Assembly (NCBI GenBank): GCA_000002445.1
Contig: CM000208.1
Location: 3,552,001-3,616,000, forward strand
Reading direction: 5' to 3'
Length of the DNA: 64,000 nucleotides
From: Trypanosoma brucei
Taxonomy: Eukaryota
A model generated the notes under the pieces. The model did not search any database. It saw only the letters and a list, made by a program, of their open reading frames with translations, and was not told the DNA's origin. The translations under genes and the position numbers were made by a program. This document shows, one piece after another, positions 5,911 to 56,600 of the stretch. Every line of letters starts with the position of its first letter. The stretch's first letter is position 1.

Positions 5911-6162
5911 GTGGACTGCACGGGTAGGGCATATAACAGTAGCGTTTAAGTGGGATAATAAGAAGGGAATTTAAAATCCACCCCGTGTTTTCAAATGCAA
6001 TTGGAACTGCATTAACACTATGCAAAAATATTCATTTTCTGTTACTATACTTGTTTCACCTCCTGCTTTAAGCAAAAATTTTTTTGTTTCCTTTATCCCA
6101 ATGTCGTTGTGTGGTCAACTTTGTCTCGTTCCGGTACGGGGGAACAACTGAAGGCGAGGTGC

Positions 6163-8715
6163 ATGGCAGAACATGCTTTTGCGTCCGAGACTAAGTATGG
6201 TCGTAGGCTGAATATGTATTTGTGTCACTGTTCCTCCGAAGAGGCAATTTTCCCTGCGACTGCGTTACGCTTGCACACCCAAACCTCAACCGGTTGGCAA
6301 TCTGCCAGGTTGTGTACATATCCTCAAGAACTTGGACTCAGTTTCAGTGGCGAAGTGGAGCTAGATTATATTCGTGTACTTTGTCACGAAAGCAATATAC
6401 CAACACGCATTGAAGTATTCGTTGCTGAGGCTAGTGATGGGAGCACAAAGTTGAATGTGGTTACGCCCTACGAAAACAGCAACTTTCAGCGGATAGGTTA
6501 TGTGCACTTTTCTGCTGGGAATGAAAGTGCAGTCGGTATCCGTGAACTTAAGACCATTAAAGTGTGTCGCAAGTGCGTTTTCGTAAAGTTTTTGATACTA
6601 AATCCATATAGTTCCAGTTTCAATACCTTTAATCAAGTGGGTATCATTGCCATGGCGGGCCACGGGCGGCTTGTGAAGAGTATACAACGTGAATCCACAA
6701 AGCGCATATGCGTGGTTGGGGAAACGGTGGAGGTGCCGCTGGAGAAGATGTTGCCACCGATATTAAATAAGTTACCATCTGCTCCTTCGGGATCCGATAA
6801 GTTCGGGGAGGTCGACGCCGTAACGAGACGCCGCCTTGCGGAACTTCTTCGTGTAAAAGAGCATGCAGTGATGACCGAGGATTATGACCTAGCTGGTGCG
6901 TTGAAACCAGTGCTGGCCACTTTGGAGGATGTTGGAAGGGAGATTTACGCATTAGAGCAGCGGAAAAATGCTGCCGTGGAGGAGGAAGACTATGCTTCCG
7001 CGAAGAAGTTAAGGGATGATATCGAGGGTATGCGGAGAACCGCCTACTTGGTCTCGATAAATCGGGTACACACGATTCGTAGAAGGTCAGTCGACAACGC
7101 AGTGGAAGTGCGGAATATTCAACACAACAATATATGTTCAGATGAAAAGCAAAAGGAAGAAAATCAATGCAGGGGTCTTTCACCACCTCCAGCGCCTAGG
7201 GTGTTTTCACCTTCGACGTTTGATGAAATGCCTGTAGGTGGTGCTGGATACTACCGACTCGTTGACGGCGAAACGGGTGCAAACGACCGGAACCACGGTA
7301 TTGCGGATGTCGTCGGTGATGTAGATGTACTTTCTGCATGTGTCATTCAAGGGAAAGAGAAATGGGAGGAGCTACTTCTTCGTGCAATAGTAACGATTTC
7401 TGGTTGTCAAAGTCTTGAGCTTGACGTAGAAGACGAATCGGTTGCGGAGGGAAAGAGATTCGAGAAGGTGTTCGGGTCTGTTTGTTGTGGCTGCTTATTT
7501 GGGAAAAGGGGGAAACTTCGGGAGGCAGCCATTCGAGCCATATGCACCCCATCTGTTTTTGTTTCTCTTTTGGGCCACGCGGATAACATTACGGAAATGC
7601 TACTTTCGTACGTGGTTCTTCCCACTCGTGGCCTAAACGATGCGACTACGTCAGTTGTCATCGCTTCTTGTGACGCGGTTCGTGCAATTGCCGAACAGTT
7701 AGAGGGAGTTCCACCGTTATCATCTCTGAATTCACACTTATCACCAGTTTTGTCGGCTCTAGTGGCCCGCCTAGGTGACAGCAACAACCGTATACGGGAG
7801 CGCGCAGAATCTGCTCTTCTATCAGTTGCCAAATCAGCGCTTGATGTCGTTGTGGTGGCCCTGGTTAGCAACCCCCAAAAGAAGAAACAACATACGGTGC
7901 CGCATAGGGTGCACGCCTCGCGCATAGCTGTACTGAATAACCTGGTAGATATGTACGGTGCCGACGGTGCAGTTTCAACAAATCTTGAGGCCCAAAATAT
8001 TCTTTCAGAAGTTGTGCTGCCCTGTATGCAGCACTCTAGCGGTGAGGTGCGGGACGCCGCAAGTTCCCTCTTTGCTAAGTTATTACTTGTCGCCCCCAGT
8101 ATTGCGCAAAGGAGTATCGGAGTTCTTAAACCAACTCAGTGGAGTGCCGTCGAACATTATTTGTCTGAGCTGACGGGCGGGGCGTGCGATGAGGGATTTT
8201 CTCGGGAGGTTGATACCAGTGATAGATTGCTCCCAAGGACCGGATTTGTTCCGTGTGCGACGCCAACTTCTGCTGAATCCGTAACAGGAAGTGCCTCTGC
8301 AGGACGTGACGCTGCATCAAAAACGTGTCATTTTTGTGGAGAATTCAACGAAGGGTTTGTGGAAGCCTCTTTGGATATTCACTTCATTCGCGCGTGCCCC
8401 ATGCTTTGCCCATGTCCTTTGTGTGACCAGGTTACCGAAATCGCAACGTTGCAACAGCACCTCACTGGCGAATGCGAGAACCGGCATTTGGTTCGTGAAT
8501 GCCCGAGATGCAAGGAGGCGGTGCGCGTAGAGGATATCGAGAGACATATTGCAGCAGAGTCCTGCATCAAAGCAGTCCCCACGCACAGCGTTTGTCCACT
8601 CTGCCACGCGCGGTTCAAGGCTGGAATGAAAGGGTGGTTAACACATTTGGCAGCGCCTCCAGGTTGCCCAAAGAACCCCAAAAAGTACGATGGATCAGGG
8701 CCCATTACCGAGTAG
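6163..8715 (+). CDS. CEP104: CEP104/FAP256 homologue (ciliary tip protein): N-terminal jelly-roll-like domain, central HEAT/TOG-like region, C-terminal Cys/His zinc-finger array.
   Basis: RLCTYPQELGLSFSGEVELDYIRVLCHESNIPTRIEVFV...FQRIGYVHFSAGNESAVGIRELKTIKV...NQVGIIAMAGHG aligns with human CEP104 FCQFPQEIVLQMVERCRIRKLQLLAHQYMISSKIEFYISE...FRRLGYVSLCDNEKTGCKARELKSVYV...NQVALVAINIIGD. C-terminus CHFCGEFNEGF...CPMLCPCPLCDQV...ECPRCKEAVRVEDIERH is ZNF-like. Start moved from 6109 to the first ATG after polyY+AG (6079-6153). Confidence 0.7.
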   Translation: MAEHAFASETKYGRRLNMYLCHCSSEEAIFPATALRLHTQTSTGWQSARLCTYPQELGLSFSGEVELDYIRVLCHESNIPTRIEVFVAEASDGSTKLNVVTPYENSNFQRIGYVHFSAGNESAVGIRELKTIKVCRKCVFVKFLILNPYSSSFNTFNQVGIIAMAGHGRLVKSIQRESTKRICVVGETVEVPLEKMLPPILNKLPSAPSGSDKFGEVDAVTRRRLAELLRVKEHAVMTEDYDLAGALKPVLATLEDVGREIYALEQRKNAAVEEEDYASAKKLRDDIEGMRRTAYLVSINRVHTIRRRSVDNAVEVRNIQHNNICSDEKQKEENQCRGLSPPPAPRVFSPSTFDEMPVGGAGYYRLVDGETGANDRNHGIADVVGDVDVLSACVIQGKEKWEELLLRAIVTISGCQSLELDVEDESVAEGKRFEKVFGSVCCGCLFGKRGKLREAAIRAICTPSVFVSLLGHADNITEMLLSYVVLPTRGLNDATTSVVIASCDAVRAIAEQLEGVPPLSSLNSHLSPVLSALVARLGDSNNRIRERAESALLSVAKSALDVVVVALVSNPQKKKQHTVPHRVHASRIAVLNNLVDMYGADGAVSTNLEAQNILSEVVLPCMQHSSGEVRDAASSLFAKLLLVAPSIAQRSIGVLKPTQWSAVEHYLSELTGGACDEGFSREVDTSDRLLPRTGFVPCATPTSAESVTGSASAGRDAASKTCHFCGEFNEGFVEASLDIHFIRACPMLCPCPLCDQVTEIATLQQHLTGECENRHLVRECPRCKEAVRVEDIERHIAAESCIKAVPTHSVCPLCHARFKAGMKGWLTHLAAPPGCPKNPKKYDGSGPITE

Positions 8716-9610: not shown

Positions 9611-9642
9611 TTGTTTGTATTCCATCCTTAATTGTGCTGCAG
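9611..9642 (+). promoter_or_regulatory. Polypyrimidine tract plus AG: candidate trans-splice acceptor for the kinesin-14 gene.
   Basis: ttgtttgtattccatccttaattgtgctgcAG lies 5 nt before the ATG at 9647. Confidence 0.5.
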
Positions 9643-9646
9643 AAAG

Positions 9647-12109
9647 ATGTCTGTGGAACAACCCGAGCAGCAAATAAGTGGACTTCTGGAGCAGCTGTAC
9701 CACAGTTCCAACGTGTCCGCAGAGCGTGAAACCATTATGAACCTGTCGAACGTCGTCAGGCAAGGAGGCGCAGAGTTTCTGCTTGACGTCGTCAAAACCA
9801 ATTTGAAGAGTGGAGTGCCCGAAAAGCAGGAGGCAAGTATGACCATTCTGGACGAGGTGACTCTCAACTGTGGTCCGTCGTTTGCTGTCATGCTTTCCTC
9901 ACAAAAGTGGATGGATCGCCTTATCAAGTTGGCTAAGGCAGGGCCGCCACAAGTAACTACCAAGATAATTTCTACTGTCATTGGGTGGCAAAAGCGGTAC
10001 CACACTGTTTCCTTTGCCCAGTGCATCAAGAAGCTGTCTCAGAGCAAAACTACGGGTGAGGCGTGCAAGCAGGCACTGCGTCAGGCAGGGGATGATGGTA
10101 CCGGGTCCTCACTGGGTTACGACGCGAGTTCTCCTGCTTCTCTGCGTTCGACAGGAGTAACCGACAGCCGGAAAAGTAAGAAGTGCGATGCCGTGTTGGC
10201 CGAGCTTCAGAGTGACCTTGTTTCTCTGGAGTACTCCCTTGAGAACCCCAAGTTTGTCCAGGATGATGCCATTGCAAGGGAGTGCAAGAATCACAAGATG
10301 AAGTGCATGCAAATGTTGGAATCAGGAAGCTATGAAAGCATTGCATCTGATCTTATGCAGTTGATTGAGCGCTTTTCCCGCGCTCTCGAGCTCTACGAAT
10401 GCATGACAGGCGTTGATTTGGGTGAGGGTGAAGCGGCAAGGTCGCGGGCTCTGACGAGGGGTAAGGATAATGGCGGTGACAGTGATGACGAGTACTCGAA
10501 ACAACTCCGTGCTCGCGTTGCGCCTAAAAATGCCCAACAAGTTATGCTTCAGGCTCAGGAAGCTACACAGCAGCTCGTGGAGAAGGAGCGTCATGAAACG
10601 ATGCAGCTGCGTACTCAGCTTGAGGAAATGCGCCGTAAGTACGAAGACATGCATAACAAGTACAAGGATGCTAAGGCAAGAAATAAAGAAGCGGTGGGTG
10701 CCTTGCAGGAGTATGCTAAACGCATAGAGGTGCTCGAGAAAAGCGGGGGCGGCGCCGCAGCCGCCGCTGCCGCACTGCCACCACCACCGCCTATTTCTGA
10801 AGAGAAAGACAAAGGAAAAGATAAATCGGGACCTGCCCTTAATGTGGGGCCAATAGCAACGGCCATGAGGGACACTGTGCAGGTTTTACGGCAGTCGCTG
10901 CGTGAGGTGCGGGAGCAGTACGTAAGCGATATCCAAAAGGAAAGCGCATATTACTCCTCTCAGCTCACTAGTGCTATTGCTTCGATTGCCGCTGCTGCCG
11001 AAAAGGATCGCGGTTCTAACAGCCAACTGTTGGTTCGCACCCAGGAGTTGTATAAGAGGGAAATGAAGCTGCGTAAGCAGTACTACAACCAGATTCAGGA
11101 GTTGAAAGGCAACATTCGTGTGTATTGCCGTGTTCGTCCCCTGCTACCAAGGGAAGTTGCTGCTGGCCATACGAATATTATGGACTTCCCCTCTGCCGAC
11201 GAGATCAGGGTCAACGATCCCGCTGGCCGGCAGAAGGTTTACGAGTTTGATGAAGTGTACCCGCCGCATGCACCCCAGGCCCGTGTCTTTGAAGACACGT
11301 CGCCTCTCATTGACAGCGTTGTGGATGGCTACAATGTTTGCATCTTTGCCTACGGCCAAACGGGAAGTGGCAAGACCCATACAATGGGTGGGTACGGGGA
11401 AGACAGAGGTATCAACACCCGTGCCTTGCAGCGACTGTTTGAGATCATTGACGAACGTAAGGACACTGATGAATCTACCGTTACCGTCTCTGTGCTTGAA
11501 ATCTATTGCGAGATGATCCGAGACCTACTGGTTCCGAAGGAGAAGTCCAAGTCCACGACTTATGAGGTGAAGCAGGGTGGCCAGTTCGGTACCTATGTGA
11601 CAAACCTTTCCGAAGTTCCCGTTCAGTGCGCTGACGAAATTACAAAGATTATGGAGAACGCAAACAAAAACCGCAGTGAGGGCCAGACGAATATGAATGA
11701 ACACTCTTCCCGATCCCATATGGTTTTGTATATCACTGTCCGAACAACGAACAAGGAAACCAATATGCAGTGCTTTGGTAAGCTCTCGCTTATTGACTTG
11801 GCGGGAAGTGAGCGTCTCGACAAGACAGGTGCAGAGGGACAGATGTTGAAGGAGGCTGTGGCTATCAACAAGTCGCTATCGTCGCTGGGAGATGTCATCT
11901 CCGGGCTGGCGCAGAACAGCAAGCACATCCCATTCCGTAACTCCGTGCTGACGTACTTGCTGCAAGACTCCATGGGTGGACAGGCCAAAGTTTTGATGTT
12001 TGTCTGCGTCAACCCTGCAAGTTACAACGCCAGTGAAAGTAACAGTTCGCTTCAATTTGCCTCTCGCGCTCGTGGCGTATCTCTTGGCCAGATCAAGAAG
12101 AATCCATAA
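9647..12109 (+). CDS. Kinesin-14 (C-terminal motor) with an N-terminal VHS/ENTH-like domain and a central coiled coil.
   Basis: Motor at nt ~11110-12109: neck GNIRVYCRVRP, P-loop IFAYGQTGSGKTHTM, switch I SSRSH, switch II LIDLAGSE. Residues 1-140 (MTILDEVTLNCGPSFAVMLSSQKWMDRLIKLAK...KIISTVIGWQKRY) resemble the VHS-domain core (e.g. GGA1 VLEACMKNCGRRFHNEVGKFRFLNELIKVV...KVIELLYSW). The ORF-track start at 9632 is TTG. The ATG at 9647 follows an AG at 9641-9642. Confidence 0.85.
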   Translation: MSVEQPEQQISGLLEQLYHSSNVSAERETIMNLSNVVRQGGAEFLLDVVKTNLKSGVPEKQEASMTILDEVTLNCGPSFAVMLSSQKWMDRLIKLAKAGPPQVTTKIISTVIGWQKRYHTVSFAQCIKKLSQSKTTGEACKQALRQAGDDGTGSSLGYDASSPASLRSTGVTDSRKSKKCDAVLAELQSDLVSLEYSLENPKFVQDDAIARECKNHKMKCMQMLESGSYESIASDLMQLIERFSRALELYECMTGVDLGEGEAARSRALTRGKDNGGDSDDEYSKQLRARVAPKNAQQVMLQAQEATQQLVEKERHETMQLRTQLEEMRRKYEDMHNKYKDAKARNKEAVGALQEYAKRIEVLEKSGGGAAAAAAALPPPPPISEEKDKGKDKSGPALNVGPIATAMRDTVQVLRQSLREVREQYVSDIQKESAYYSSQLTSAIASIAAAAEKDRGSNSQLLVRTQELYKREMKLRKQYYNQIQELKGNIRVYCRVRPLLPREVAAGHTNIMDFPSADEIRVNDPAGRQKVYEFDEVYPPHAPQARVFEDTSPLIDSVVDGYNVCIFAYGQTGSGKTHTMGGYGEDRGINTRALQRLFEIIDERKDTDESTVTVSVLEIYCEMIRDLLVPKEKSKSTTYEVKQGGQFGTYVTNLSEVPVQCADEITKIMENANKNRSEGQTNMNEHSSRSHMVLYITVRTTNKETNMQCFGKLSLIDLAGSERLDKTGAEGQMLKEAVAINKSLSSLGDVISGLAQNSKHIPFRNSVLTYLLQDSMGGQAKVLMFVCVNPASYNASESNSSLQFASRARGVSLGQIKKNP

Positions 12110-14076: not shown

Positions 14077-15798
14077 ATGGAGTACCCAGCGGAGTTCCAC
14101 ACACCGTCCACAGTGTATCAAGAGGGATGTACGACGTCTCCAAGTCCCACACCGATGTTCCCCAAGGTTTCAAATTTGGTGACAGGCATTTGGGAGCGGC
14201 CTTCCGAATCTCACGATGCTGGCTGTCTTAAGGATTACGCTGTGCGTGAAATGCGGGATGCTACGCAATCTAACGCCCAACCGACGTCAGTGCCATCCCC
14301 TCGGTGCACATCCAATGTAAATGACGGTTTCAGGATCCCCCCTTACGACACGTTTCTGCCTACGTGTGATAAAGAGAGGTCCCAAATTTCTGCGCCCACA
14401 GTGGATGGGGTTTCCATCAATGCCCTCTCCAGCCTCTTCAGCAGTGAACCCATATTGGCCGAGAATACGGTACCAAGCGGTGACTGGGATGTCTTCTTCC
14501 CTTTGAGGGAGTGTTGGAACAGTTCTTCCCGCCCGCCGACACCGACCATACCACTCGGTGTTTGTGCTAACATTACTGATACTCCTCCAAAGCTGCATTT
14601 GTCGAACGCGATTGGGGAAGTTTGTCCGCAGAGCGCAGATATGCAAAGGCCCTTCTTTTCGCTAGAGGAGGATACAGAGAGTGAGGAAGTTTGCGCACTC
14701 CCGGTGAACTTTGGTACAACCTACTGTTCTGAGGGGAACATTGTCGAAGCCCTCATTGCGCAGCTCGCAGCGAATGGCGACAGCGTGGTGCCAACTTCGA
14801 TCAACAAAGTTTATGCACCCCAAGGCCAGAGGACATCATCTGCTATGTCTTCGTTTCAAGAGGGAACGGTACGCAACGCAAAACGGGGCGCAGCCGTCTC
14901 TGACCCTCTCGCAGCGCACCTTCTCGACAACACAACCGACATTTATGAGGGAGTCGCTGGTCGTCACGTCGCTGCCACGGCAGTGTGTGAGGGTCAACAG
15001 CGTCACGTGCCTCCATTCGCCATATGTTGTTCGCCCATTGACCTACCAGGTGTGGGCAATGGGCGTGCGATGAATGAACGGCACCGCGGGTTTATTCAGC
15101 ATCGCCAGCGCGGTGCCGACACTGCTTCGCGATCTGGAAAGGGAGGATTGGCTCCAGGCAGTTGGCATCTTGGCCGGAGACCTCTCTACTCTTTGCCGTT
15201 TCCTTTGGTGGATCACAGCATGCTGAGTGACTTATACCGTGATACCCCTCAAGATCAAGAGTTGAGGCGTATTATCAACTCTAACGGCCCCGGTGGACCG
15301 CTTATGTCGTCTGAGTGGCCGCCGCGTACGAAGAGTTGTGTGGTAAAAATGTTGAGGCAGTTGCACGCGAAGGTGTTGCTGCAGCATCTGCGGGTTGTGA
15401 GTTTTGCCCGAAGGGATCTCTACGGAGTGGTGCGCCTGTTTGACTCGTGGAACGGTAAAGGCATTCCGCCCCCTGGCGTCATGTTCGGATCATACTACTT
15501 CTATACCATGTCAAAATTTGGCAGAGAGATGTGCCTGAAGCATAACGGTCGCGAGCGGGCGGGTGGGTTTTGCCGAGGGTGTGACTATGCCCAGCGGGGT
15601 CCCAACTTTAGATGCCGCTACCAGCACGCTTGCCTCTTTTGCTTGTCCGATGATCATGGGTGGTTTGACGAAACATGCTGCCAGCGATATGTCGCCTTGC
15701 AGCAAAAGATGGTGGAGCTGAGGATAACTGATGCCGTGGCCCAAGCGCTCCTTGACGCGCTGGAAACTGAAGATGAACCCATTCGCCGCAAGGGGTGA
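14077..15798 (+). CDS. Hypothetical protein (573 aa) with a C-terminal Cys/His cluster that may bind zinc.
   Basis: ATG-initiated ORF on the coding strand, downstream of a 320-nt pyrimidine-rich block (13540-13860). C-terminus MCLKHNGRERAGGFCRGCDYAQRGPNFRCRYQHACLFCLSDDHGWFDETCC has about 8 Cys/His ligands with B-box/RING-like spacing. Confidence 0.5.
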   Translation: MEYPAEFHTPSTVYQEGCTTSPSPTPMFPKVSNLVTGIWERPSESHDAGCLKDYAVREMRDATQSNAQPTSVPSPRCTSNVNDGFRIPPYDTFLPTCDKERSQISAPTVDGVSINALSSLFSSEPILAENTVPSGDWDVFFPLRECWNSSSRPPTPTIPLGVCANITDTPPKLHLSNAIGEVCPQSADMQRPFFSLEEDTESEEVCALPVNFGTTYCSEGNIVEALIAQLAANGDSVVPTSINKVYAPQGQRTSSAMSSFQEGTVRNAKRGAAVSDPLAAHLLDNTTDIYEGVAGRHVAATAVCEGQQRHVPPFAICCSPIDLPGVGNGRAMNERHRGFIQHRQRGADTASRSGKGGLAPGSWHLGRRPLYSLPFPLVDHSMLSDLYRDTPQDQELRRIINSNGPGGPLMSSEWPPRTKSCVVKMLRQLHAKVLLQHLRVVSFARRDLYGVVRLFDSWNGKGIPPPGVMFGSYYFYTMSKFGREMCLKHNGRERAGGFCRGCDYAQRGPNFRCRYQHACLFCLSDDHGWFDETCCQRYVALQQKMVELRITDAVAQALLDALETEDEPIRRKG

Positions 15799-18569: not shown

Positions 18570-18650
18570 AAGGTAATCTTCTTGTTTATTGCCTAATTAT
18601 TCCAGTTGCTGTTTCGCACTCTTTCTGTTGCGCCGCGCGGCTCCTACACA
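18570..18650 (+). promoter_or_regulatory. Polypyrimidine tract plus AG: candidate trans-splice acceptor region for the EHD-like gene.
   Basis: cttcttgtttattgcctaattattccAG followed by ttgctgtttcgcactctttctgttgcgcc, upstream of the ATG at 18687. Confidence 0.45.
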
Positions 18651-18686
18651 GAGGCAGTGAACAGACGATATTCCACAAGCGAACCA

Positions 18687-20240
18687 ATGAGTTCGGGTAA
18701 TAGGGACCTTTCAGTGGACAATCCGTTGCAATGGAGAGATCTTAATAACACAGAGGAATTTATGCGAAAATTGCATGAGATTTACATGAAAAGTGTGAAG
18801 CCTCTTGAGGACATATACCTGTATGAGGTACTTTCCCCTCGGTGGTTTGAAGAGACTCTTTCCAGTTATAAACCTATAGTTACCTTCTTGGGACCGTGGT
18901 CAGCCGGGAAGAGTACATTTATTAATTACCTCTTGCAGGACAATTACCTTTTTACGGGACCTCAGCCAACCACTTCAGAGTTCACCGTCATCACTTATGG
19001 CGATGATGTGACCACGTTGGACGGTCACGTCGTTGCCAGCACAAAGGACCTCCCTTTTAGGGCTTTAGCCAACTTCGGAGAGGGATTTATGGGCAACTTC
19101 TGTGGGTTGCAGGTCCCGCATGAGCTCTTAAAGCGTGTTGTACTCGTTGACACTCCAGGTGTGTTGGAAAATTCCACCGACGATAGGGAGCGGCGCTACA
19201 ATTATACTGAAGTGTGCCGATGGTTCGTGGAACGTAGTGACATGGTTTTCCTGCTGTTTGACCCCGCTAAGCTCGACGCTGGTACCGAGTTGCGTAATCT
19301 GTTCAGGTACACTTTCAAGGGAATGGAGGGGAAACTTCGCATTGTTCTAAATAAGGCCGACAGTGTCGCGAAAAAGGAACTGATGCGTGTGTACGGCAGC
19401 CTTTTTTGGAATCTGTCTACGTTGATTCGCTGCACAGAACCACCGCGGGTGTACATTGGCAGTTTTTGGGATCAGCCGTACAAACCGGGTACGTTTGCGC
19501 TGCTCTTCACGAAGGAAAAGGAGGATCTGCTTTATGAGCTGACGGAGTTGGTTCCCCGGCAGGCACGGGACAGAAAAGTCGCTGCTCTTATAAGCCATGC
19601 AAAGAAAGTCGTTTGCCACGCGTACATTGTAGGTGGAATCCGGGCAGATCTCCCGATGTTTTTCGGTAAAGAAAAGGCTAAACGCAAAGCATTGGAGAAT
19701 TTGCCGAAAACATATCAGTTGGTTGCATCCAGAAATCGACTCAGCCCGAAGGATCTTCCTCCTGCGCAGCTGTACCATGAATACTTCGAGAAGGTGCACC
19801 TTGAAAAACTCCCAGATATAAAAAAGGTTGAGAAAACGGGGATGATAACGACCGCTCAACATTACATTTGCAATATTTTGCCCAGTATGTTCTACCCTAT
19901 GAAGCAAGTCCCCGTTCCAGACCCACGGAATAAGACGGAACAAGGGAAGTTGCGGGAAATGTACTACGGGGGTCTGCGTGACCAATATGATGGAAAGGAA
20001 GGTAAACAGGGAAGCAGTGATACAGTGCCAATCGCCTTTCGGGAGACCGCGCTTGGTCCAAATCCAGAACTACGTGGTGGATGCGGCCAGCTTACTGTGC
20101 CGGGGGCAACGGCAAACACCACTCCCGCTATGAATAACGTCCAAATGAATGAACAGCAACAACAAATGCTCATGCAGATGATGATGATGATGCAGCAACA
20201 GCAGCAGCAAGGGAACAACCAGTTCTATGCTCCACGGTAG
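18687..20240 (+). CDS. EHD-family dynamin-like ATPase (EHD/sarcalumenin G-domain) lacking the C-terminal EH domain. Ends in a Q/M-rich tail.
   Basis: VTFLGPWSAGKSTFINYLL...GPQPTTSEFTVI...VVLVDTPGVLE...RIVLNKADSV...LMRVYGSLFWNLS...RVYIGSFWDQPY aligns collinearly with EHD1 LFLGQYSTGKTTFIRYLL...GPEPTTDSFIAV...ISIIDTPGILS...RVVLNKADQI...LMRVYGALMWSLG...RVYIGSFWSHPL. C-terminus MNEQQQQMLMQMMMMMQQQQQQGNNQ. The ORF-track start at 18606 is TTG. The first ATG is 18687, after polyY/AG (18570-18650). Confidence 0.8.
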   Translation: MSSGNRDLSVDNPLQWRDLNNTEEFMRKLHEIYMKSVKPLEDIYLYEVLSPRWFEETLSSYKPIVTFLGPWSAGKSTFINYLLQDNYLFTGPQPTTSEFTVITYGDDVTTLDGHVVASTKDLPFRALANFGEGFMGNFCGLQVPHELLKRVVLVDTPGVLENSTDDRERRYNYTEVCRWFVERSDMVFLLFDPAKLDAGTELRNLFRYTFKGMEGKLRIVLNKADSVAKKELMRVYGSLFWNLSTLIRCTEPPRVYIGSFWDQPYKPGTFALLFTKEKEDLLYELTELVPRQARDRKVAALISHAKKVVCHAYIVGGIRADLPMFFGKEKAKRKALENLPKTYQLVASRNRLSPKDLPPAQLYHEYFEKVHLEKLPDIKKVEKTGMITTAQHYICNILPSMFYPMKQVPVPDPRNKTEQGKLREMYYGGLRDQYDGKEGKQGSSDTVPIAFRETALGPNPELRGGCGQLTVPGATANTTPAMNNVQMNEQQQQMLMQMMMMMQQQQQQGNNQFYAPR

Positions 20241-20795
20241 GAGCACTGCTAGCAAAAAGTAAGATCTTAAGCAGTAAAGTAGTACTGAACTGCTTCGCTG
20301 TGCTAATGCCGCGCTCGTTGCTCACACCATTGGTGAAGCCGTTAACTAGTTGGTGCCTTCATTCGTGCTTTTGTCGGTTGTTTTGTTTGTCCTACCGTCA
20401 TGGCTTATCTCAGACGGTTTCTGGCTTCGGAGGTTTGGCCAATAAACGAACATGGTTGCGCACTGGATGAGGGGGGGGGGTATTCCGAAACAAACTAAAC
20501 GACTATGTTATTGCTTTTGCTGGAGCTTACTTGCCCATCCTTACACTCCTTTCTTCCTATGCGCATACCGTTTTTATATATGTGCACTTGGGGTTGTATG
20601 CGTATTTGCTTCTTCAAGTTTCCTAAACGCCTTCGTCACTGTTGGCATATATACGCTTTTTTGCTGTCAGGGGTTGCGCCATGTCGTTTCTTGGTGGCAT
20701 ATTTGCTTTTGCTACTTCGGTAAGAAAAGGGGGAAAAATCGGTGAGAGAGTGTGTCTCCCATTGTGCAACGTTCTCATACTTGCCAAAGTGCTCA

Positions 20796-20843
20796 TTTTC
20801 CGATTTTGTCTCCCAACGTTGTTTTCCTTTCTCTTTTTTTTAG
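20796..20843 (+). promoter_or_regulatory. Polypyrimidine tract plus AG: candidate trans-splice acceptor for the 20861 gene.
   Basis: gctcattttccgattttgtctcccaacgttgttttcctttctcttttttttAG lies 17 nt before ATG 20861. Confidence 0.5.
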
Positions 20844-20860
20844 AGCGACGGAGCCCGTTC

Positions 20861-23800
20861 ATGACTCAACCGGTGGATGACAGTTGGTATGATGCTGAAC
20901 TCCTTGATGCGCTGCTGGGGAAAGAGGACGTTGACCCTTCACATGTACCGCTCTCGTCGCTGGCGGCCGCAGCACCCGCGACAACACCGAAGGGGTCTTG
21001 TAGGGCTTTAGAGATTACTGATTTGGGTCATCCGCGCCTCTTTATGATTGGCGGTTCCCTCTTTTCACGATACTGCAGGCCTTCTCCAGCCCTGCAGTAT
21101 CATCGAGCTCGTTTTCACTGGTCTCGCCTCTCGTGGCTGGATTACAGTGCCATTTACTGTCCTTTCACAAAGCAGTTTCTCTCTCCGCGTTCCCCGCATT
21201 GGAGTCACCTCGTCTCAGCTGGTTTTGGCACCCCTCGCCGTTTGCTTTTTGGTCGAAGCATCGTTCTGGTGGAGCCCCAGAAGCTGCAAGCACTAGCAGC
21301 TCACATTCAACAATCGAAAGAGGGGAATGCTGTTTCCGGGAAGAACCCAACTGCAATGTGGAGTCCTCCACTGCAGCAGACATTAGGCCTTCTTCTCGAG
21401 ACGCTGCCCTACCATGACGAGACTTCTTTAGCGCGGCGAGTGCAAGAGGTGTTAAGTGCGGGGGATACCGGAGCTGGCACCGGTCGCCGCATACCGCTGG
21501 GTCTTTATAACCATGTGCCCGATGTGAAACGCGTCATGCCGCCGCCGCGGAGTTCTCAGGAGGGGGAGGAGGAGGAGCTCGCACAAAATGACGTTGATGC
21601 CGTTGAAGTTGTGGCCCTGGGGGAAAGTTACTTGCGACGGGTTCTTCCCTGGCGCACTGCAGTGCTGCAGCACCGTCCCAAAATGAAGTTAAATATGAAG
21701 GTGGGACACAAGGAAATGGTGGGTTTGTCATCTGAAGGTGCCGACCTGCATCCTGCACACAGCAAAGCCGATGTACTGGTAGAACGTTATTCCTTACTGT
21801 GTTCCACCCCCTGTTGTGTTCCGAAGACCCAAATGGCTTATTTGTCTCTCCGTTACGTGCCCGATGTTCCGGTGATGCAAGTTGTTGTGGACGCGCTGCT
21901 TCGCACTGAGGAAACAGAGTATGTGTTTTACTGCCCAATTGAACACGGTGTCGACTGTCACACAGTGGTGGATATTGTAGCATACCGGGTACGGCGCACG
22001 GGGGACGGAGATGTGCGGGCCGCTGAACGCTTCCCAGTGCTTCATTTGGGGCTGCATGCAAACCCTACCGACTCTTCCGTTGCGCCTGTCATTGTCGTCA
22101 TCGGAAATGCCCATCTACTTTCACAGCGTGCTATTTCCCGCCTTCTGGATCAGTGGACACGTAATGGTGCCGCCGCCGTCGCGGTTAGACGAAGGAATGG
22201 TGGTAGCGGTGACAACGGGAACAGTGATGTCGGCATCGATGCGGATGAGGCCGTTGGGCGGAGTTGGCGGGGACGGGAGTTACTGCTGCGAATAGGGGAT
22301 CCACTGCGCGCTATCGCTTGTGGCGTGCCCCTCTTTGGGAATGTCCGTGCAGTGTTTGTCTCCTACTCTGCATTTGATTGTGCTCCTAGTGATTGCTCAG
22401 CTCACTCCCCGGGACTAAATAACAGCGTGTCATGCGTTCGTAGTGCCAACGCCACCGTTCACGTTCTTAAACCTTTGCGTGAAGGTGTTTTCACTCTCGA
22501 AGAGCCGGTTGTTGCAGCGCTGAGACGAGTAGCCCCGACGTTCCAGAGGCGAATGGACGTGTCGGATAGACGTTTGTTTATTAAGGAAGTGTGTGATGTC
22601 ATTTCAAGCACACACGTTTCCACACTCTCCAACAGGGGTGCGGACAGACATGGGTGGACAACGTCACCCGATGACAGTTATCGCGAGGAAGATGTCTTAT
22701 TACACTTGTATGAGGCTGTGGAAGCGTTTCTAGAATGCCCAGTGAAGAGCGGGGATGTCAGCCTCCTATCGTGTGCCCATTTGATGACAAAGTACCCTGA
22801 ACTCGCGACGGCGCGCATCCGGCATGAGCTTATTCGCGAGTTCCCCCTCTACGTGGAAATGAATAAAAGTGAACTAACGGTTTGCTCAGCTGTTTCGGCT
22901 CCGGCACCAGACAGTGTCGTTGAGTGCGCGGCTGGTGGGTCCGGGTCTTGTGAGTGTGCTGCTGGATTTAATATTCCCCTGGTGAGCAGTCGCCGTCTCG
23001 CACGCAAGAAAGCTGAGGAAGAACACGACTCACTCAAGAAAACGTACGTTCTAAATGCGACACTGGATCGTGTCGTCACCTCTGACGCCAGTGGTTGTGG
23101 CTCTTCATTCACATCCGTTATCATGCGGGGCTCTGAGCATCAACGGTACGAATGCCCGATTGAGCACAGTTACCAACCCTTCTTTGAGCCCCCTCTGTTG
23201 CTGGGTCGTTGGAGTCAAACACTTCTTTTCTGCGCTCCTGTGGTTGCCGATACGGTAGCGCTGCGGTGCGTGCTGCTGCATGCCGCGGAGGCTTCGGTTC
23301 GTGACGATGACACTATCAATGTGGTTGACGTGGATATATTTTGTGTGGATTACGTGAAATATCCCCCTGAACGCCGCTGTCGCTTGTTTGGAGTGAGATT
23401 GCGCTTCGCTACACGTGATGGGTTCACAAAAGGTACCGTTAAGGATTGCTCAGCACGTGAGTGGGCGACGGAAATGTTGGAACATGCGCTCGCTAAGTGC
23501 GCCGTCAGTGCAGAGTTATTTCCGCTGTGGACCAGTTCTGAACTAAGGAAGCAGAGAACCTGTCGTCATGTTACACAAGGTAGTGGAGTGGCCGGCACCT
23601 TCGTACCACACTTTCGTTTTGAGGCGTTGGATGAGTGTGTGAGAGCAGCACAACCTAACGTAGTGGAACAGCGACTATTTGCGCTTGGATTTGTTCAATG
23701 TGGCCCACTATGCCTCACTGTCGGCTCCCACGTAATTGCGTTACGCGACATATCCTCCAATATAAAACGAGGGACACTGTGCCGCGTTGTTCGCTTCGCT

Positions 23801-24403
23801 CCGATGATGGTCGCACACGAGTTCGGGGCGCCAGTGGATCGAATGGTCCAATGCTTTTTTGAGCAGCAGAGATGTAAAGGTGGCGGTATGGGGGCATTAC
23901 CCGTAGTGCGGCCAGTGTTACAACCAAATAATTTGCAGGTCACCCCATTCGGGGAAGCGGATGAAAGTGAGAGGGAAACAAGAGATGAAGAGGCGTTAGT
24001 TATTCCCGCCGTAAGTTTGGTCGGTGGATACCGGTCGTTACACTATTATGCACTGCCGGCACTGCAGCTGCCGCTTCTCGTGCCGTCTCAAGCCGCAGCC
24101 GCCTCCACTCTTTTTCATCCACTCTTTGCACACCAAGACAGTTTACTGGAGTTCGCTTCAGCGGAGACTCGCTCAAAGGCTGCGACGATGATAATGTCGC
24201 TACCACCTTCCTTAGGTGCGCGGAGAAGTGTGTCATGCGCGTTTTTGTATGATGCTGTCTTTGACGACGGAGAGTCCGGAGCTGAAGTTCATGAAGAGGG
24301 CGGGCAGTTTCCCCCTCATGGGAGTAAGGGCAGTGCTTCTCCCTCTTATACTGTGTGTTGTGATGTACTATCGGCGCTTTCACTTTTCCCATTGAGGGTG
24401 TAG
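20861..24403 (+). CDS. Large hypothetical protein (about 1180 aa), no recognisable domain.
   Basis: Continuous ORF with gene-like codon usage. The ORF-track start at 20642 is TTG, and the in-frame N-terminal 73 aa are F/L-rich translation of a pyrimidine tract. ATG at 20861 (MTQPVDDSWYDAELLDALLGKEDVD) follows polyY+AG 20796-20843 directly. Alternative ATG at 20681. Confidence 0.55.
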   Translation: MTQPVDDSWYDAELLDALLGKEDVDPSHVPLSSLAAAAPATTPKGSCRALEITDLGHPRLFMIGGSLFSRYCRPSPALQYHRARFHWSRLSWLDYSAIYCPFTKQFLSPRSPHWSHLVSAGFGTPRRLLFGRSIVLVEPQKLQALAAHIQQSKEGNAVSGKNPTAMWSPPLQQTLGLLLETLPYHDETSLARRVQEVLSAGDTGAGTGRRIPLGLYNHVPDVKRVMPPPRSSQEGEEEELAQNDVDAVEVVALGESYLRRVLPWRTAVLQHRPKMKLNMKVGHKEMVGLSSEGADLHPAHSKADVLVERYSLLCSTPCCVPKTQMAYLSLRYVPDVPVMQVVVDALLRTEETEYVFYCPIEHGVDCHTVVDIVAYRVRRTGDGDVRAAERFPVLHLGLHANPTDSSVAPVIVVIGNAHLLSQRAISRLLDQWTRNGAAAVAVRRRNGGSGDNGNSDVGIDADEAVGRSWRGRELLLRIGDPLRAIACGVPLFGNVRAVFVSYSAFDCAPSDCSAHSPGLNNSVSCVRSANATVHVLKPLREGVFTLEEPVVAALRRVAPTFQRRMDVSDRRLFIKEVCDVISSTHVSTLSNRGADRHGWTTSPDDSYREEDVLLHLYEAVEAFLECPVKSGDVSLLSCAHLMTKYPELATARIRHELIREFPLYVEMNKSELTVCSAVSAPAPDSVVECAAGGSGSCECAAGFNIPLVSSRRLARKKAEEEHDSLKKTYVLNATLDRVVTSDASGCGSSFTSVIMRGSEHQRYECPIEHSYQPFFEPPLLLGRWSQTLLFCAPVVADTVALRCVLLHAAEASVRDDDTINVVDVDIFCVDYVKYPPERRCRLFGVRLRFATRDGFTKGTVKDCSAREWATEMLEHALAKCAVSAELFPLWTSSELRKQRTCRHVTQGSGVAGTFVPHFRFEALDECVRAAQPNVVEQRLFALGFVQCGPLCLTVGSHVIALRDISSNIKRGTLCRVVRFAPMMVAHEFGAPVDRMVQCFFEQQRCKGGGMGALPVVRPVLQPNNLQVTPFGEADESERETRDEEALVIPAVSLVGGYRSLHYYALPALQLPLLVPSQAAAASTLFHPLFAHQDSLLEFASAETRSKAATMIMSLPPSLGARRSVSCAFLYDAVFDDGESGAEVHEEGGQFPPHGSKGSASPSYTVCCDVLSALSLFPLRV

Positions 24404-30977: not shown

Positions 30978-32276
30978 ATGTACGGTAACCAGTCTAGTGG
31001 TGGACCGGAAACCCCACCGTTAGTGTGGAATGTCGCAAAGGTGCTGCAAGACGGTTTCAACAACCACCGCAGTTCCCTGCCGCAACTTCTCGGGATTGCG
31101 CACAATCTAGAGGAGACCTTGGAAAATACAAGACTAATGTACAACAAGGCCGTGAAGGAGCGTGATGAACTGCGCAACAAACTTGTCGCCGCACAAAATA
31201 GTATCGTCGCGGTGAAACGAGTCGTTGAACAATACGCCACTGTCAATGAGCCGGTTGTGGCTTCAGATGGCTTCACATACGAGAGTGAACTCATCCGTGA
31301 TTACCTGCGGGAATGTGCCAGTTCTCAGACCAAGGCATACTCGCAATTAACAAAGGAGGAACTGCTAGATGTACTGGTCCCCAACCAAACGTTGAGCCGG
31401 CTTGTAAAAATGCTTCAACAAGTTTGCCCCATGGATGTGCCACCGGTTTCTGTGCGCACTCCGATACCACCCTTCAAACCGCTTCAGCAAGGTGAAGTGG
31501 GAAGCAAGGGGGTGGGGAGTAACCTCAACTGGGCCGGTGACGAGCGTGGACCCGGTACATCAGCCATACAGGCATCAGATGTGGAAACAGCGATGGTAAG
31601 TGCAGCTACCACCCCGGGAGTTAGCGGTGTGCACAGTTCCAATGCACAGGCAGTTACCAGCAACCCCAACGGTGCTACCGCACGGCGGTGGGAAAACCGG
31701 CAGGCACAACAACCGCAGGTTTCTGGATTTACCGGGAAGAATTCCAACAGGAAACATCCTTGCCTTCGAGTGTATGGTCGATGCAACTTCTTGGAGGACT
31801 GTGCCTTCGCTAATTACCCGTATGGAGCGTGCCTCAACTACATTAAGGGTAAGTGCCGCTTTGGACAACACTGCAAGGAGCTTCATGTCAGCTCTGCTTA
31901 TCCTCGCTACGGTGACCAGCGTGGGGGCGGGGGCATTAATAGCGGCAACAACACCGCTAACAATTCCACCGCAAATGCCGATATTGCCACACCCACTGCA
32001 ACAGGAAGAGGAGGTTCCGGAGCAAATCCCACTACAACTCCTCGTTCGGAGGAGAAGGGCCAGTCCACCAGCACCAAGGCGAAGAAAGGTGCGAGAGAGT
32101 CCAGCAAATGTAGCAGTGTAAAGACGGATGCGTGTGCAGGGGGCGATGTGGAGGCGGAAGCGGTGAAGGAACTGAAGGCAGCGCCACCCGACACATCACC
32201 TCAAGAGGCGACGGGAGGCGAAAGGACGGAGCGGGAAGTAATGGAGGCTCCGGAACCTTCTGAGGGAAGTACTTAA
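30978..32276 (+). CDS. U-box plus CCCH zinc-finger protein, paralogue B (432 aa) with an extended low-complexity C-terminus.
   Basis: Same architecture as 25526..26383: YATVNEPVVASDGFTYESELIRDYLRECA...SQLTKEELLDVLVPN, and HPCLRVYGRCNFLEDCAFANYPYGACLNYIKGKCRFGQHCKELH with identical Cys/His spacing. About 50% identity in the conserved blocks. Confidence 0.7.
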   Translation: MYGNQSSGGPETPPLVWNVAKVLQDGFNNHRSSLPQLLGIAHNLEETLENTRLMYNKAVKERDELRNKLVAAQNSIVAVKRVVEQYATVNEPVVASDGFTYESELIRDYLRECASSQTKAYSQLTKEELLDVLVPNQTLSRLVKMLQQVCPMDVPPVSVRTPIPPFKPLQQGEVGSKGVGSNLNWAGDERGPGTSAIQASDVETAMVSAATTPGVSGVHSSNAQAVTSNPNGATARRWENRQAQQPQVSGFTGKNSNRKHPCLRVYGRCNFLEDCAFANYPYGACLNYIKGKCRFGQHCKELHVSSAYPRYGDQRGGGGINSGNNTANNSTANADIATPTATGRGGSGANPTTTPRSEEKGQSTSTKAKKGARESSKCSSVKTDACAGGDVEAEAVKELKAAPPDTSPQEATGGERTEREVMEAPEPSEGST

Positions 32277-35350: not shown

Positions 35351-35411
35351 ATTTTTGTTGCTGCCGTTGACTGTTTCTTTATTTGCATTTAATTAAATCT
35401 CAAACAAAAAG
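35351..35411 (+). promoter_or_regulatory. Polypyrimidine tract plus AG: candidate trans-splice acceptor for IFT52.
   Basis: atttttgttgctgccgttgactgtttctttatttgcatttaattaaatctcaaacaaaaAG lies upstream of ATG 35443. Confidence 0.45.
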
Positions 35412-35442
35412 AAAAAAATCGTACACTCACAACTACTTTGCC

Positions 35443-41865: not shown

Positions 41866-42763
41866 GAACCTGAAGGTTTTGGATATGGTGTTCGTGATGA
41901 AGGCGGGAGGTTTTGATGCCTATGCGGAGGTGGGTGGAGGGGGGTGGTGAAGGATTGGACAAGGCTGCGTGAAGAAAGGAGGGAAGAGAAGAAGAAGAAT
42001 AGGAAATTGCATTGTGTAGTAGTGCTGGCTGTTAAATCAAGGACCCTATTTGTTAGTGCAGGAGTGTATAGATCAACAACAAGGACAGCGGGAAGTTTTA
42101 TAAAGGAGGAGGAAGGAGAAAGTTTGGGAGTATCATGTGGGGTAAATGGAAGGAAGGGAGAGTACTTGCTTCTGCTCAGCACCTCTTAGCCTTCCTCTCG
42201 TTTTCCCACCGTTTCTTGGTTTTGCGTGCCAACTCTCTTAGAGGTGAATGCTTTTATATTATATTTTACTTTTTAACCTTGTCTTTACTTCTGAGCCTGG
42301 CATCTCTTATTCCTCTACGTTGCTACTAAAGACACGGTGCAAGCGATGCCTTGCGTGCATAATTTGCGGACCTTAACGGATGAATGTCTTGTACCGTGTT
42401 GGAAAGGGAAAAGAATGTGAACATGCGGAGAGAAAACAGTTTTCCCCCCCTTTCCCCGTGACATGTGGACGCTTTTTTATTCTTCTATCTACACAGTCGC
42501 ACGCGGGAGCGCATCCGCACTGCTAGGTTTTTTTCTTTTCGCGCACCGTGAATTGTTTCTTCCCGTTTGTCGAATGACACTTTTGTTTCGGTTTGACGAC
42601 TGAAGTGTGCCAAAGCTGATCAAGACAGAGGAAGGTTGTACATTAGGAGGTGTGGAGAGCGAGAACAGCCGGAAATCCAGTGAAGCCAAAGGAACATCTG
42701 CTTATATACTCAGGGACGCGAGAGAGCAAAAGGGTTGGTAGAGGATATTTGGACGGAGCAGCA

Positions 42764-52383: not shown

Positions 52384-53731
52384 TTTTTTTTTCTAAATTT
52401 CCCTCATATGTTCTTCGGTTTTGTGTGCCCAATGCGCCGCATGATAGGGGACGGACTCCTACAAAGACATTAGTGCGTATCTGAATACACGATTTCTCTC
52501 TTTCTATTCCTTTAATCCTTGTTTTCTTTTCTCTTCTTCTTTTCTTTTTCTTTTTCTTTTTATGTAGTTGTTGTTCGTAGCTTTGTTTTTTGTTTTTTTT
52601 CTTTTGTGCTCGAAGGAGAAAGCAAGCATTTACTTTCTTTCTCTTTTGTTTTTTTCCTTGCAATTGACAATTACTAATTGTTTCGATGGGATGAGAGAAG
52701 AGAAGAGAGGAGAAAAGAGATGAAGAGAGAAGTGCGGGGTGGGGTCTCGGGATGATTGGGCGAGTGAAGGTTTTTTTTTATTGTTTAACGTGTCCTGGAG
52801 TTATTGTTAAAAAAAAAAAAGAGAGAGAAGGAGGAAAAGAAAGGGATTTAAAAAAAGAAAAGCGACTGATAAGTTTTTTTTTTTTTGAAGGGGGGGGGGA
52901 AGGAGAAAAATAGGCATGGAACTCAAACGGTTAGAAGGCCATCTGGGGACATGCCCCAATTTTTACTTTTTTTTTCTTTTTAATTCCTATAGCGCATATT
53001 TGCGTACTGTGTGTGTACACGCGCAGGGCATTTGGGTTGGTCGTGCATGTATGTGTACGCATTCCATTATTTGGTTGTGGTTAGGTGCGGCTGCCGCAAA
53101 AGTGAGTATATTCATTCACCTGTGCAAAAAGTCAAGGAAGGCCGGTGGATTGTTTTCTTCTTCTTCACCTTTCTTCCTTCTTTCTTTCCTTTCTTTCTTT
53201 CTTTCTTTTCCCCCCTTTTTCTCTTATTTTCGTACCCCACACTTTACTCCCGTTTTGTGGGTATGTTTTTTTTTTCTGTTTGGATGGAGAGTGGTGACTC
53301 CTCCCTCCTGTGAAGTAAAAGTGTTGCGTTGTCGTCAGCCATACCATATTATTTTCCACCTTATCATTTTTCTGTTTCATGGTCTTCCTCGTGAACCTGT
53401 ATTTCATGTCCTTTGTTTTTTTTTTTGTTTCTCTTCTCTATATCTCTTTGAATTCTCCTTTACCAATATATTTTCTAATAACCCATACTGGTCTACTGTT
53501 TGCAGTGGTTGTTGTGGACTATTCGCGGGCAGCCACACAGTTCTTTTTTTTTTTCTTTCGTAGAAGGATTAGCATATAGCTCAAGTGTTAGCGAGCCGGG
53601 TTGTCCTTCCCCACCTGTCCGCCTCCGTTTATTTATTTATTTATTTCACCCGCGTGCGAATAGAGGGAGAAAAGTTAGGGGTAATTTAAAAAAAAAAAGG
53701 AAAGCAATACTTGTGACGGCTCTCCATAACA

Positions 53732-56552: not shown

Positions 56553-56557
56553 CATAA

Positions 56558-56600
<43 letters not shown>

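Follow-up and report, generated by a model that had tools for sequence, protein, structure and literature searches.

TbKIFC1 of Trypanosoma brucei, a kinesin-14-type motor protein with an N-terminal VHS domain

Gene identity and motor region

The window analyzed is a 64,000 nucleotide stretch of Trypanosoma brucei contig CM000208.1, and the positions given below are those of the window. An open reading frame on the forward strand (9632-12109) has its earliest ATG at 9647 and a stop codon at 12107-12109, giving a predicted product of 820 amino acids. Published TbKIFC1 positions (K94, K97, V103, I107, V111, W114, Y118, T577, and 116-KRYHTV-121) all match the numbering of this reading frame, and both 20-mer qPCR primers reported for TbKIFC1 (PMC4560804) have exact matches within the window. 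Judged by residue numbering, the CARC motif, and the primers, the gene is TbKIFC1 (UniProt Q388B7). The encoded protein is the same as the published one, with coincident residue numbers, mutated residues, CARC motif, and primer sites and no detectable difference. A further TbKIFC1 reference is Dutoya 2001, as cited in PMC7479354. The VHS-kinesin fusion, presented as unusual in an earlier sequence-only reading, is real but already known: the VHS domain of TbKIFC1 was published in 2015 (PMC4560804), has been mutated and functionally tested, and was dissected in 2020 (PMC7479354). Since the importance of the fusion is already documented, that finding adds no new knowledge. Features of the locus are collected in Table 1.

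Table 1. Features of the TbKIFC1 locus, in window positions
Feature	Positions	Strand	Basis or remark
Complete TbKIFC1 CDS	9647..12109	+	ORF, translation, fit of published residue numbers to start codon
VHS domain, eight-helix superhelix, aa 5-131	9659..10039	+	
CARC-type cholesterol motif KRYHTV, aa 116-121, VHS helix 7	9992..10009	+	Motif search; role per PMC7479354
Low-confidence variable linker, aa ~151-173	10097..10165	+	AF2 pLDDT, homologue alignment
Conserved three-helix block, aa 174-254, probable GAT-like domain	10166..10408	+	Conservation, AF2, profile comparison
Stalk, aa 255-469: acidic patch (DSDDE), charged helical stretch, Ala/Pro-rich hinge aa 370-382	10409..11053	+	Composition, motifs
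Neck and C-terminal kinesin motor, aa 470-810	11054..12076	+	Pfam Microtub_bd, Kinesin; solved motor matches
P-loop GQTGSGKT, aa 570-577	11354..11377	+	T577 changed in published ATP-binding mutant T577N (PMC4560804)
TbKIFC1 qPCR amplicon (PMC4560804 primers)	11292..11424	.	Forward primer 11292 +, reverse primer 11405 -

The C-terminal motor is unambiguous, as had been claimed from the sequence: GNIRVYCRVRP was located at aa 488-498, GQTGSGKTHTM at aa 570-580, SSRSH at aa 687-691, and LIDLAGSE at aa 715-722. The Pfam Kinesin family (PF00225) matched aa 495-810 with an E-value of 3.8e-113 over 326 of its 327 profile positions, and Microtub_bd (PF16796) matched aa 470-628 (E 4e-44). The P-loop, switch I (SSRSH), and switch II (DLAGSE, aa 717-722) place the protein in the kinesin superfamily, while a motor occupying aa 495-810 of 820, preceded by the neck-motor junction ...ELKGNIRVYCRVRP at aa 488-498, corresponds to the kinesin-14 layout. 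The closest solved motors were KIFC3 (3.3e-90), KCBP (3e-87, two entries), an Ncd chimera, KIFC1, and Kar3, with KIF3B and kinesin-1 close behind; the best of these relatives (KIFC3, KCBP, Ncd, KIFC1, and Kar3) are kinesin-14s and suggest a motor of that class. Minus-end-directed movement would follow from this family membership alone; neither PMC4560804 nor PMC7479354 was found to state which way TbKIFC1 moves or what oligomer it forms, and the terms 'minus-end' and 'coiled' are absent from both. In the stalk, only weak matches to coiled-coil families (CCDC22_CC and others) were returned by Pfam. The charged helical stretch probably forms a coiled coil, through which TbKIFC1 would dimerize.

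The VHS domain and the conserved block that follows it

VHS (PF00790) was matched at aa 5-131 with 34.8 bits when the whole protein was searched and 38.4 bits when aa 1-200 were used. Because these scores lie above the curated Pfam gathering cut-off of 29.8 bits, the resemblance is statistically supported and is not a chance impression; a number of TbKIFC1 homologues individually exceed the cut-off as well. The proposal that the first ~140 residues are of VHS type is thus borne out, and the two stretches on which it had drawn, ILDEVTLNCGPSFAVMLSSQKWMDRLIKLAK and KIISTVIGWQKRY, lie at aa 67-97 and aa 106-118 as quoted. An AF2 model based on a multiple sequence alignment displays an eight-helix right-handed superhelix at the extreme N-terminus, and this predicted fold supports VHS. 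An earlier single-sequence model of aa 1-160 (pLDDT 77.6), superseded by the alignment-based model for fold comparison, had VHS domains top-ranked with E-values of 0.06-0.3 and TM-scores of 0.4-0.5. It is highly improbable that the N-terminus belongs to some other alpha-helical type (a generic HEAT/ARM, CID, or ENTH repeat) and matches VHS by chance, and the Pfam search of TbKIFC1 listed no ENTH or ANTH family even at E <= 10. Three residues (K50, W88, W114) never vary across 14 VHS-kinesin homologues, and two more (K54, K97) are almost invariant. Mutations of W114 and K97 are among the residue changes that abolished TbKIFC1 function (PMC4560804, PMC7479354).

Beyond T. brucei, the VHS-kinesin architecture is shared by further trypanosomes, one bodonid, one prokinetoplastid, euglenids, and a green alga, Mesostigma. 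The N-terminal domain is accordingly kept in other kinetoplastids, and its presence in euglenids and Mesostigma indicates that the architecture is not a parasite-specific invention. Homologues are annotated by JGI and KEGG as 'kinesin family protein C2/C3'. A separate family of VHS proteins devoid of a motor was considered for the seeming VHS-only matches and rejected. The 410-aa T. congolense entry G0UYM6 stems from a faulty gene model, its tail being an out-of-frame translation of the motor start, and P0004 and the Neobodo protein P0008 are probably fragments because their clusters hold much longer members (855, 935 aa). The T. conorhini protein P0003 (458 aa) bears the name 'putative C-terminal motor kinesin'.

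Following the VHS domain, a linker with pLDDT below 50 (AF2, aa 151-175) varies in length among homologues and holds no alignable sequence. C-terminal to this disordered linker lies a block conserved in all 14 VHS-kinesin homologues, with helices at aa 174-199, 207-226, and 230-254 and a block-mean pLDDT of 77-94 (AF2). When the family profile was compared with the PDB, the GAT domains of GGA1 (E 0.024-0.05) and TOM1 (E 0.2-0.3) were matched, but the similarity was confined to helices 2-3 and an unrelated bZIP match fell among these. GAT (PF03127) was the only Pfam family to recur among members (E 8.6e-5 to 0.059), with the best score in Mesostigma (23.1 bits, E 8.6e-5), followed by Entosiphon (20.3), Jenningsia (16.7), and T. 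melophagium (14.0). All of these are sub-threshold (Pfam gathering score 31 bits), and the block of TbKIFC1 itself (aa 174-254) has no Pfam GAT match. Comparison with a GGA1 GAT segment by hhalign gave P 6.8e-5 and a probability of 63.5%. The Mesostigma block searched singly against the PDB returned only noise (dynein, Pol epsilon). The GAT signal thus appears at profile level only. No GAT structure was among the best 50-60 fold matches, a comparison that used a two-domain model as query and is hence uninformative on GAT. Although sub-threshold, the resemblance of aa ~174-254 to the GGA/TOM1 GAT domain hints at a VHS-GAT module like that of TOM1, in which TbKIFC1 would possess a second cargo-binding domain.

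Published function and interpretation

Recombinant TbKIFC1 VHS binds phosphatidylinositol (PI), phosphoinositides, and PS in vitro, and cholesterol enhances this binding (PMC7479354). The published VHS ligand is anionic lipid plus cholesterol (Vanwalleghem 2015, PMC4560804; Lecordier 2020, PMC7479354), and binding of ubiquitin or of DxxLL or other sorting signals is unreported in these two papers. VHS and motor are both necessary for APOL1 and endosomal trafficking, and mutation of either one (K94A/K97A or VHS7 in VHS, T577N in the motor) leads to loss of APOL1 trafficking (PMC4560804, PMC7479354). Clearance of VSG-antibody complexes requires TbKIFC1, whose closeness to VPS4 and to a katanin p60-like protein depends on VHS (PMC7479354). 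TbKIFC1 localizes to endosomal and acidic vesicles throughout the cytoplasm, with some posterior enrichment, and not to the flagellum (PMC4560804, PMC7479354). The identity of the carried membrane is loosely defined because the published data do not assign TbKIFC1 to the endocytic compartment proper (PMC4560804).

Collectively, TbKIFC1 is very probably (at about 0.93) a kinesin-14-type C-terminal kinesin whose VHS domain docks on vesicle membrane and whose motor moves the cargo membrane. The VHS domain would dock the protein onto endosomal or acidic-vesicle membranes rich in anionic lipid and cholesterol, chiefly via the helix 7/8 hairpin, with the central helical stalk presumably serving as the dimerization element. 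Through ATP hydrolysis the C-terminal motor would then move the membrane and its embedded content along microtubules, presumably minus-endward. Inside the parasite, TbKIFC1 is the motor that transports APOL1, the trypanolytic factor of humans, and both antibody clearance and infectivity require it.

A role in flagellar, intraflagellar, or flagellar-pocket transport would be suggested by ciliary gene neighbors, and such genes are indeed nearby: the window contains CEP104 (6109-8715), IFT52 (35383-37410), IFT80 (39517-41865), and a weak CFAP68-like match (42650-44032). Other genes of this array encode a lipoyl synthase, a protein kinase, a U-box protein, an LYR protein, and an EHD-like ATPase. 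The forward strand carries nearly all window ORFs of at least 200 aa and all of those that match a Pfam family. Gene order in the polycistronic layout of trypanosomatids is not known to reflect function. The proximity of IFT52, IFT80, and CEP104 was rejected as functional evidence because the polycistronic array is intermixed with unrelated genes. After knockdown, motility was reported to be slightly impaired and VSG-antibody complexes to move more slowly toward the flagellar pocket, but the phenotype was ascribed by its authors to membrane cholesterol and fluidity rather than to the flagellum (PMC7479354), and the published cytoplasm-wide, posterior-enriched localization argues against flagellar transport, which is very unlikely. 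The broader notion of endocytic trafficking near the flagellar pocket is consistent with the reported VSG-antibody clearance defect.

Closer to the sequence-only reading, and compatible with lipid binding, is the idea of a full VHS-GAT module of TOM1/GGA type at the N-terminus, whose main task would be to bind protein cargo (ubiquitinated cargo or sorting signals) and not just to anchor the protein to lipid; this would make TbKIFC1 a motorized ESCRT-0/TOM1-like adaptor. The conserved three-helix block has the same placement, just after VHS, as GAT in GGA and TOM1, and the profile matches to GGA1/TOM1 GAT (E 0.024-0.3), the recurrence of Pfam GAT, and the hhalign result are in its favor, but every GAT score is below 31 bits, the TbKIFC1 block is without a Pfam GAT match, a single homologue block gave only noise against the PDB, and the fold matches, uninformative on this point, included no GAT entry. 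Published genetic data are compatible with it as well. The effect of TbKIFC1 on apoL1/suramin sensitivity partly needs the putative E3 ubiquitin ligase Tb927.10.12940 (PMC5790291), the proximity of VPS4 to TbKIFC1 depends on VHS (PMC7479354), and trypanolysis was affected by K94A/K97A, a mutant modeled on the sorting-signal site of GGA (PMC4560804); against these, recombinant VHS binds lipid directly and the word 'ubiquitin' is absent from PMC4560804 and PMC7479354. A receptor of this kind is a possible but doubtful alternative to VHS-mediated membrane docking.

More speculative still is an extension in which TbKIFC1 and its relatives combine a kinesin-14 motor with a full VHS-GAT cargo module of the TOM1/GGA type, ancient or transferred, with TbKIFC1 acting as an ESCRT-0-like receptor of trypanosomes that hands ubiquitinated endosomal cargo to ESCRT/VPS4. 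Such a 'motorized TOM1' design would be old or transferred because it is common to kinetoplastids, euglenids, and the streptophyte alga Mesostigma. We know of no report of a Hrs/STAM-type ESCRT-0 in trypanosomes. One survey of trypanosomes found no VHS protein at all (PMC3473312). A receptor for ubiquitinated endosomal cargo, if true, would explain the genetic link to Tb927.10.12940. Should the block be a real GAT, the cargo end of TbKIFC1 would have to be reconsidered as a ubiquitin or protein-cargo receptor, beyond a lipid anchor, and three published but so far unconnected observations (E3-ligase dependence, VPS4 proximity, and the K94/K97 mutation effect) would become linked.

Comparison with known systems

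A review of TOM1 lists TbKIFC1 as an 'unrelated protein' carrying a VHS domain. In contrast to the VHS-GAT proteins TOM1, TOM1L, and GGA, the C-terminal half of TbKIFC1 comprises a stalk (probable coiled coil) and kinesin motor in place of a clathrin-, Tollip-, or ear-binding region, and the GAT match of its family is sub-threshold. The non-motor C-terminus that recruits clathrin, Tollip, or endofin in the TOM1 family is replaced by stalk and motor. TbKIFC1 is thus not a TOM1-family member, and its N-terminus may work in a TOM1-like manner.

The animal kinesin-14B proteins KIFC2/KIFC3 and plant KCBP have the motor domains closest to that of TbKIFC1 (KIFC3 3.3e-90, KCBP 3e-87), C-terminal in all of them, and differ in their N-terminal cargo domains, that of KCBP being MyTH4-FERM. 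To our knowledge, none of KIFC2, KIFC3, and KCBP possesses a VHS domain. Among the kinesin-3 proteins, KIF16B (PX) and KIF1A (PH) have a membrane-recognition domain fused to the motor and so pick up endosomal membrane without an adaptor. TbKIFC1 resembles them in having a membrane-recognition module built onto its motor, whereas KIF16B and KIF1A belong to another kinesin family, with an N-terminal motor, plus-end movement, another lipid-binding fold, and a lipid module located at the other terminus.

Identity and domain organisation of the kinesin

A single long ORF on the plus strand (9632-12109), with its first ATG at 9647, encodes a protein of 820 aa (ORF scan and translation). Vanwalleghem et al. 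(PMC4560804) described TbKIFC1 (UniProt Q388B7) together with its K94A/K97A and T577N mutants and two primers for qPCR, and Lecordier et al. 2020 (PMC7479354) reported a VHS domain of eight helices, a CARC motif ('116 KRYHTV 121') and a VHS7 mutant, V103A/I107A/V111A/W114A/Y118A. On translation, each published mutated residue agreed with the papers in identity and numbering, KRYHTV was located at aa 116-121, and both published 20-mer primers were exact matches (11292 + and 11405 -). Residue numbering, motif position and primer matches identify the gene as Trypanosoma brucei TbKIFC1. The sequence-only reading had called such a VHS-kinesin fusion an unusual link; TbKIFC1 and its VHS domain were already published (PMC4560804, PMC7479354), and this exact fusion is known and experimentally dissected.

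The interpretation of the protein as VHS plus kinesin-14, also made in that reading, was correct. All of the kinesin and N-terminal motifs it quoted were recovered at the expected positions, and the closest solved motors by sequence comparison were the kinesin-14s KIFC3, KCBP, Ncd, KIFC1 and Kar3. The VHS resemblance is not a chance likeness, since the Pfam match exceeded the curated cut-off of 29.8 bits; no ENTH or ANTH family was detected in the Pfam scan of the kinesin, even at E <= 10.

Structure prediction and fold comparison of the N-terminus likewise placed VHS domains on top. When aa 1-160 were modelled with AlphaFold from the single sequence (pLDDT 77.6), eight helices lay within aa 6-131, and the fold search with this model ranked the VHS domains of GGA, TOM1, Hrs and STAM first, though weakly. 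A second model, of aa 1-262, derived from the alignment of 14 homologues, had a mean pLDDT of 85 (~95 over the VHS region) and again matched VHS domains best. The Foldseek ranking for this model was in agreement (STAM2 E 8.6e-4; Hrs 9e-4; GGA1 VHS TM 0.71, normalised to target). The outcome named as refuting in the sequence-only reading, a generic helical bundle with best matches elsewhere, did not occur: VHS domains lead the fold comparisons.

Fold comparison of the aa 1-262 model
Comparator	Fold	Score	A / residues
Hrs	VHS	16.3	6.8 / 142
GGA2	VHS	15.9	2.3 / 134
N. benthamiana TOM1	VHS	15.5	2.1 / 124
STAM2	VHS	15.1	3.7 / 141
TOM1L1	VHS	14.2	2.5 / 125
UVSSA	VHS	13.9	2.3 / 130
Pcf11	CID	13.4	2.8 / 131
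Tepsin, epsin	ENTH	<= 11.7	2.1-2.6 / 107-111
Various	HEAT/ARM	<= 11.7	

Features of TbKIFC1 (aa) and of the window (nucleotides)
Feature	Position	Strand	Evidence
VHS PF00790	aa 5-131		Pfam, 34.8 bits (whole protein), 38.4 bits (aa 1-200)
ILDEVTLNCGPSFAVMLSSQKWMDRLIKLAK	aa 67-97		motif search
KIISTVIGWQKRY	aa 106-118		motif search
Conserved block after VHS	aa ~174-254 (10166-10408)	+	alignment; three-helix
Microtub_bd PF16796	aa 470-628		Pfam, E 4e-44
Neck GNIRVYCRVRP	aa 488-498		motif search
Kinesin PF00225	aa 495-810		Pfam, E 3.8e-113
P-loop GQTGSGKTHTM	aa 570-580		motif search
Switch I SSRSH	aa 687-691		motif search
Switch II LIDLAGSE	aa 715-722		motif search
CEP104 homologue	6109-8715	+	all three CEP104 Pfam domains (N-terminal, TOG, ZnF), E 5e-35 to 6e-31
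EHD-like dynamin-family ATPase	18606-20240	+	Dynamin_N, DUF5600, EHD_N
IFT52	35383-37410	+	GIFT, central, C-terminal domains
IFT80	39517-41865	+	second beta-propeller (E 1e-99), TPR domain
CFAP68-like	42650-44032		weak match
Long ORFs (573, 1253, 432, 215, 522 aa)	14077-15798, 20642-24403, 30978-32276, 52916-55300	+	no Pfam match (E <= 0.001)
ORF of at least 200 aa nearest the 3' end	63086-63862	-	no Pfam match

Distribution of the architecture

Residues 1-200 were searched exhaustively with phmmer against a set of 1.84 billion representative proteins, and 18 matches were returned. According to Pfam scans and source names, the order VHS, conserved block, stalk and C-terminal motor was found in Trypanosoma melophagium, Bodo saltans (a bodonid) and Apiculatamorpha spiralis (a prokinetoplastid). 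Jenningsia fusiforme and Entosiphon sulcatum, both euglenids, share it, as do several environmental sequences and the streptophyte green alga Mesostigma viride, whose 904-aa protein has its VHS match (41.2 bits) at aa 66-162 and its motor at aa 543-867. The VHS-stalk-C-terminal kinesin architecture is not confined to trypanosomes; its spread across Euglenozoa and Mesostigma is unexpectedly wide. Leishmania was not represented among these 18 matches, possibly owing to database coverage. In 2012, a survey of the ENTH/ANTH/VHS superfamily gave ENTH as the only representative in Excavata (PMC3473312), and therefore missed the TbKIFC1 VHS domain.

T. conorhini and Neobodo designis are represented by shorter entries with VHS only. 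These carry the N-terminal blocks seen in the longer proteins and are probably pieces of this kinesin. The T. congolense IL3000 entry G0UYM6 (410 aa) was rejected as a VHS-only protein: its last ~67 residues match an out-of-frame translation of the motor start (window 11118-11516, alternative frame; 49% identity, E 5e-17), indicating a defective model of the T. congolense orthologue, truncated and either frameshifted or collapsed.

Gene neighbourhood and function

The ciliary neighbours named in the sequence-only reading are present, with the CEP104 homologue immediately upstream of the kinesin and IFT52 and IFT80 as adjacent ORFs of at least 200 aa in one directional array; the functional argument drawn from them did not hold. 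The plus strand carries nearly all ORFs of at least 200 aa in the 64-kb window, including every Pfam-matched one; this is the polycistronic layout of trypanosomatids, in which adjacency is no sign of shared function. Other genes of the array encode lipoyl synthase, a protein kinase, an EHD-like ATPase and LYR, U-box and GNL3L-like proteins, and with such unrelated genes intermixed the IFT and ciliary neighbours provide no functional evidence. The EHD-like ATPase, of the endocytic-recycling type, lies ~6.5 kb downstream of the kinesin. The long plus-strand ORFs without Pfam matches probably encode lineage-specific proteins. GC content falls to 0.34 within 56001-60000, and GC skew is negative at 56-58 kb; together with the minus-strand ORF, this low-GC stretch may mark a polycistronic unit end or strand-switch region.

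Published localisation and phenotypes of TbKIFC1 point to endosomal/vesicular traffic, not IFT (PMC4560804, PMC7479354). Recombinant VHS binds phosphoinositides and phosphatidylserine, faster with cholesterol, and its helix 7/8 inserts into membranes, an ability lost in the VHS7 mutant (PMC7479354). APOL1 killing was not restored by add-back of VHS7, K94A/K97A or T577N (PMC4560804, PMC7479354), and in proximity labelling wild-type TbKIFC1, but not VHS7, had VPS4 and a katanin p60-like protein in its vicinity (PMC7479354). Knockdown raised Golgi and plasma membrane cholesterol, lowered VSG mobility, slowed clearance of VSG-antibody complexes and abolished infectivity in immunocompetent mice (PMC7479354), and an independent RNAi screen again recovered TbKIFC1 as an apoL1 and suramin determinant (PMC5790291). 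Across the 14 aligned homologues K50, W88 and W114 were invariant and K54 and K97 nearly so, which fits the published mutational data. From family membership, the stalk would be expected to dimerise the protein and movement to be minus-end-directed; neither property is stated in PMC4560804 or PMC7479354.

A GAT-like block after the VHS domain

Alignment of the phmmer matches revealed a second conserved block beyond a variable, low-confidence linker, and in the aa 1-262 model confident helices span aa 174-199, 207-226 and 230-254. The block consensus is similar to the final two GAT helices of GGA and TOM1, proteins in which GAT comes after VHS; the similarity is most evident in the Mesostigma sequence ...EEVLMVLLEVNDDVNVALERWNGL. 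Homology to GAT is considered probable (roughly 0.6) rather than established, with sub-threshold scores. In its favour, a profile of the block matched GGA1 (E 0.024-0.05) and TOM1 (E 0.2-0.3) GAT entries in the PDB, with one unrelated bZIP match among them; GAT was the sole Pfam family recurring among block homologues (Mesostigma 8.6e-5, Entosiphon 6.4e-4, Jenningsia 8.7e-3, T. melophagium 0.059); and hhalign paired the block with the GGA1 segment (P 6.8e-5, probability 63.5%). Counting against it, all homologue scores fall below the Pfam GAT cut-off (31 bits), the TbKIFC1 block itself has no Pfam GAT match, and a single-sequence PDB search with the Mesostigma block returned only noise. Among the top 50-60 fold-search matches of the two-domain aa 1-262 model there was no GAT structure, a comparison that carries little information about this block.

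Neither PMC4560804 nor PMC7479354 mentions a GAT domain or ubiquitin. If the block is a true GAT domain, the N-terminus would constitute a VHS-GAT module of the TOM1 type, possibly linked to ubiquitin.
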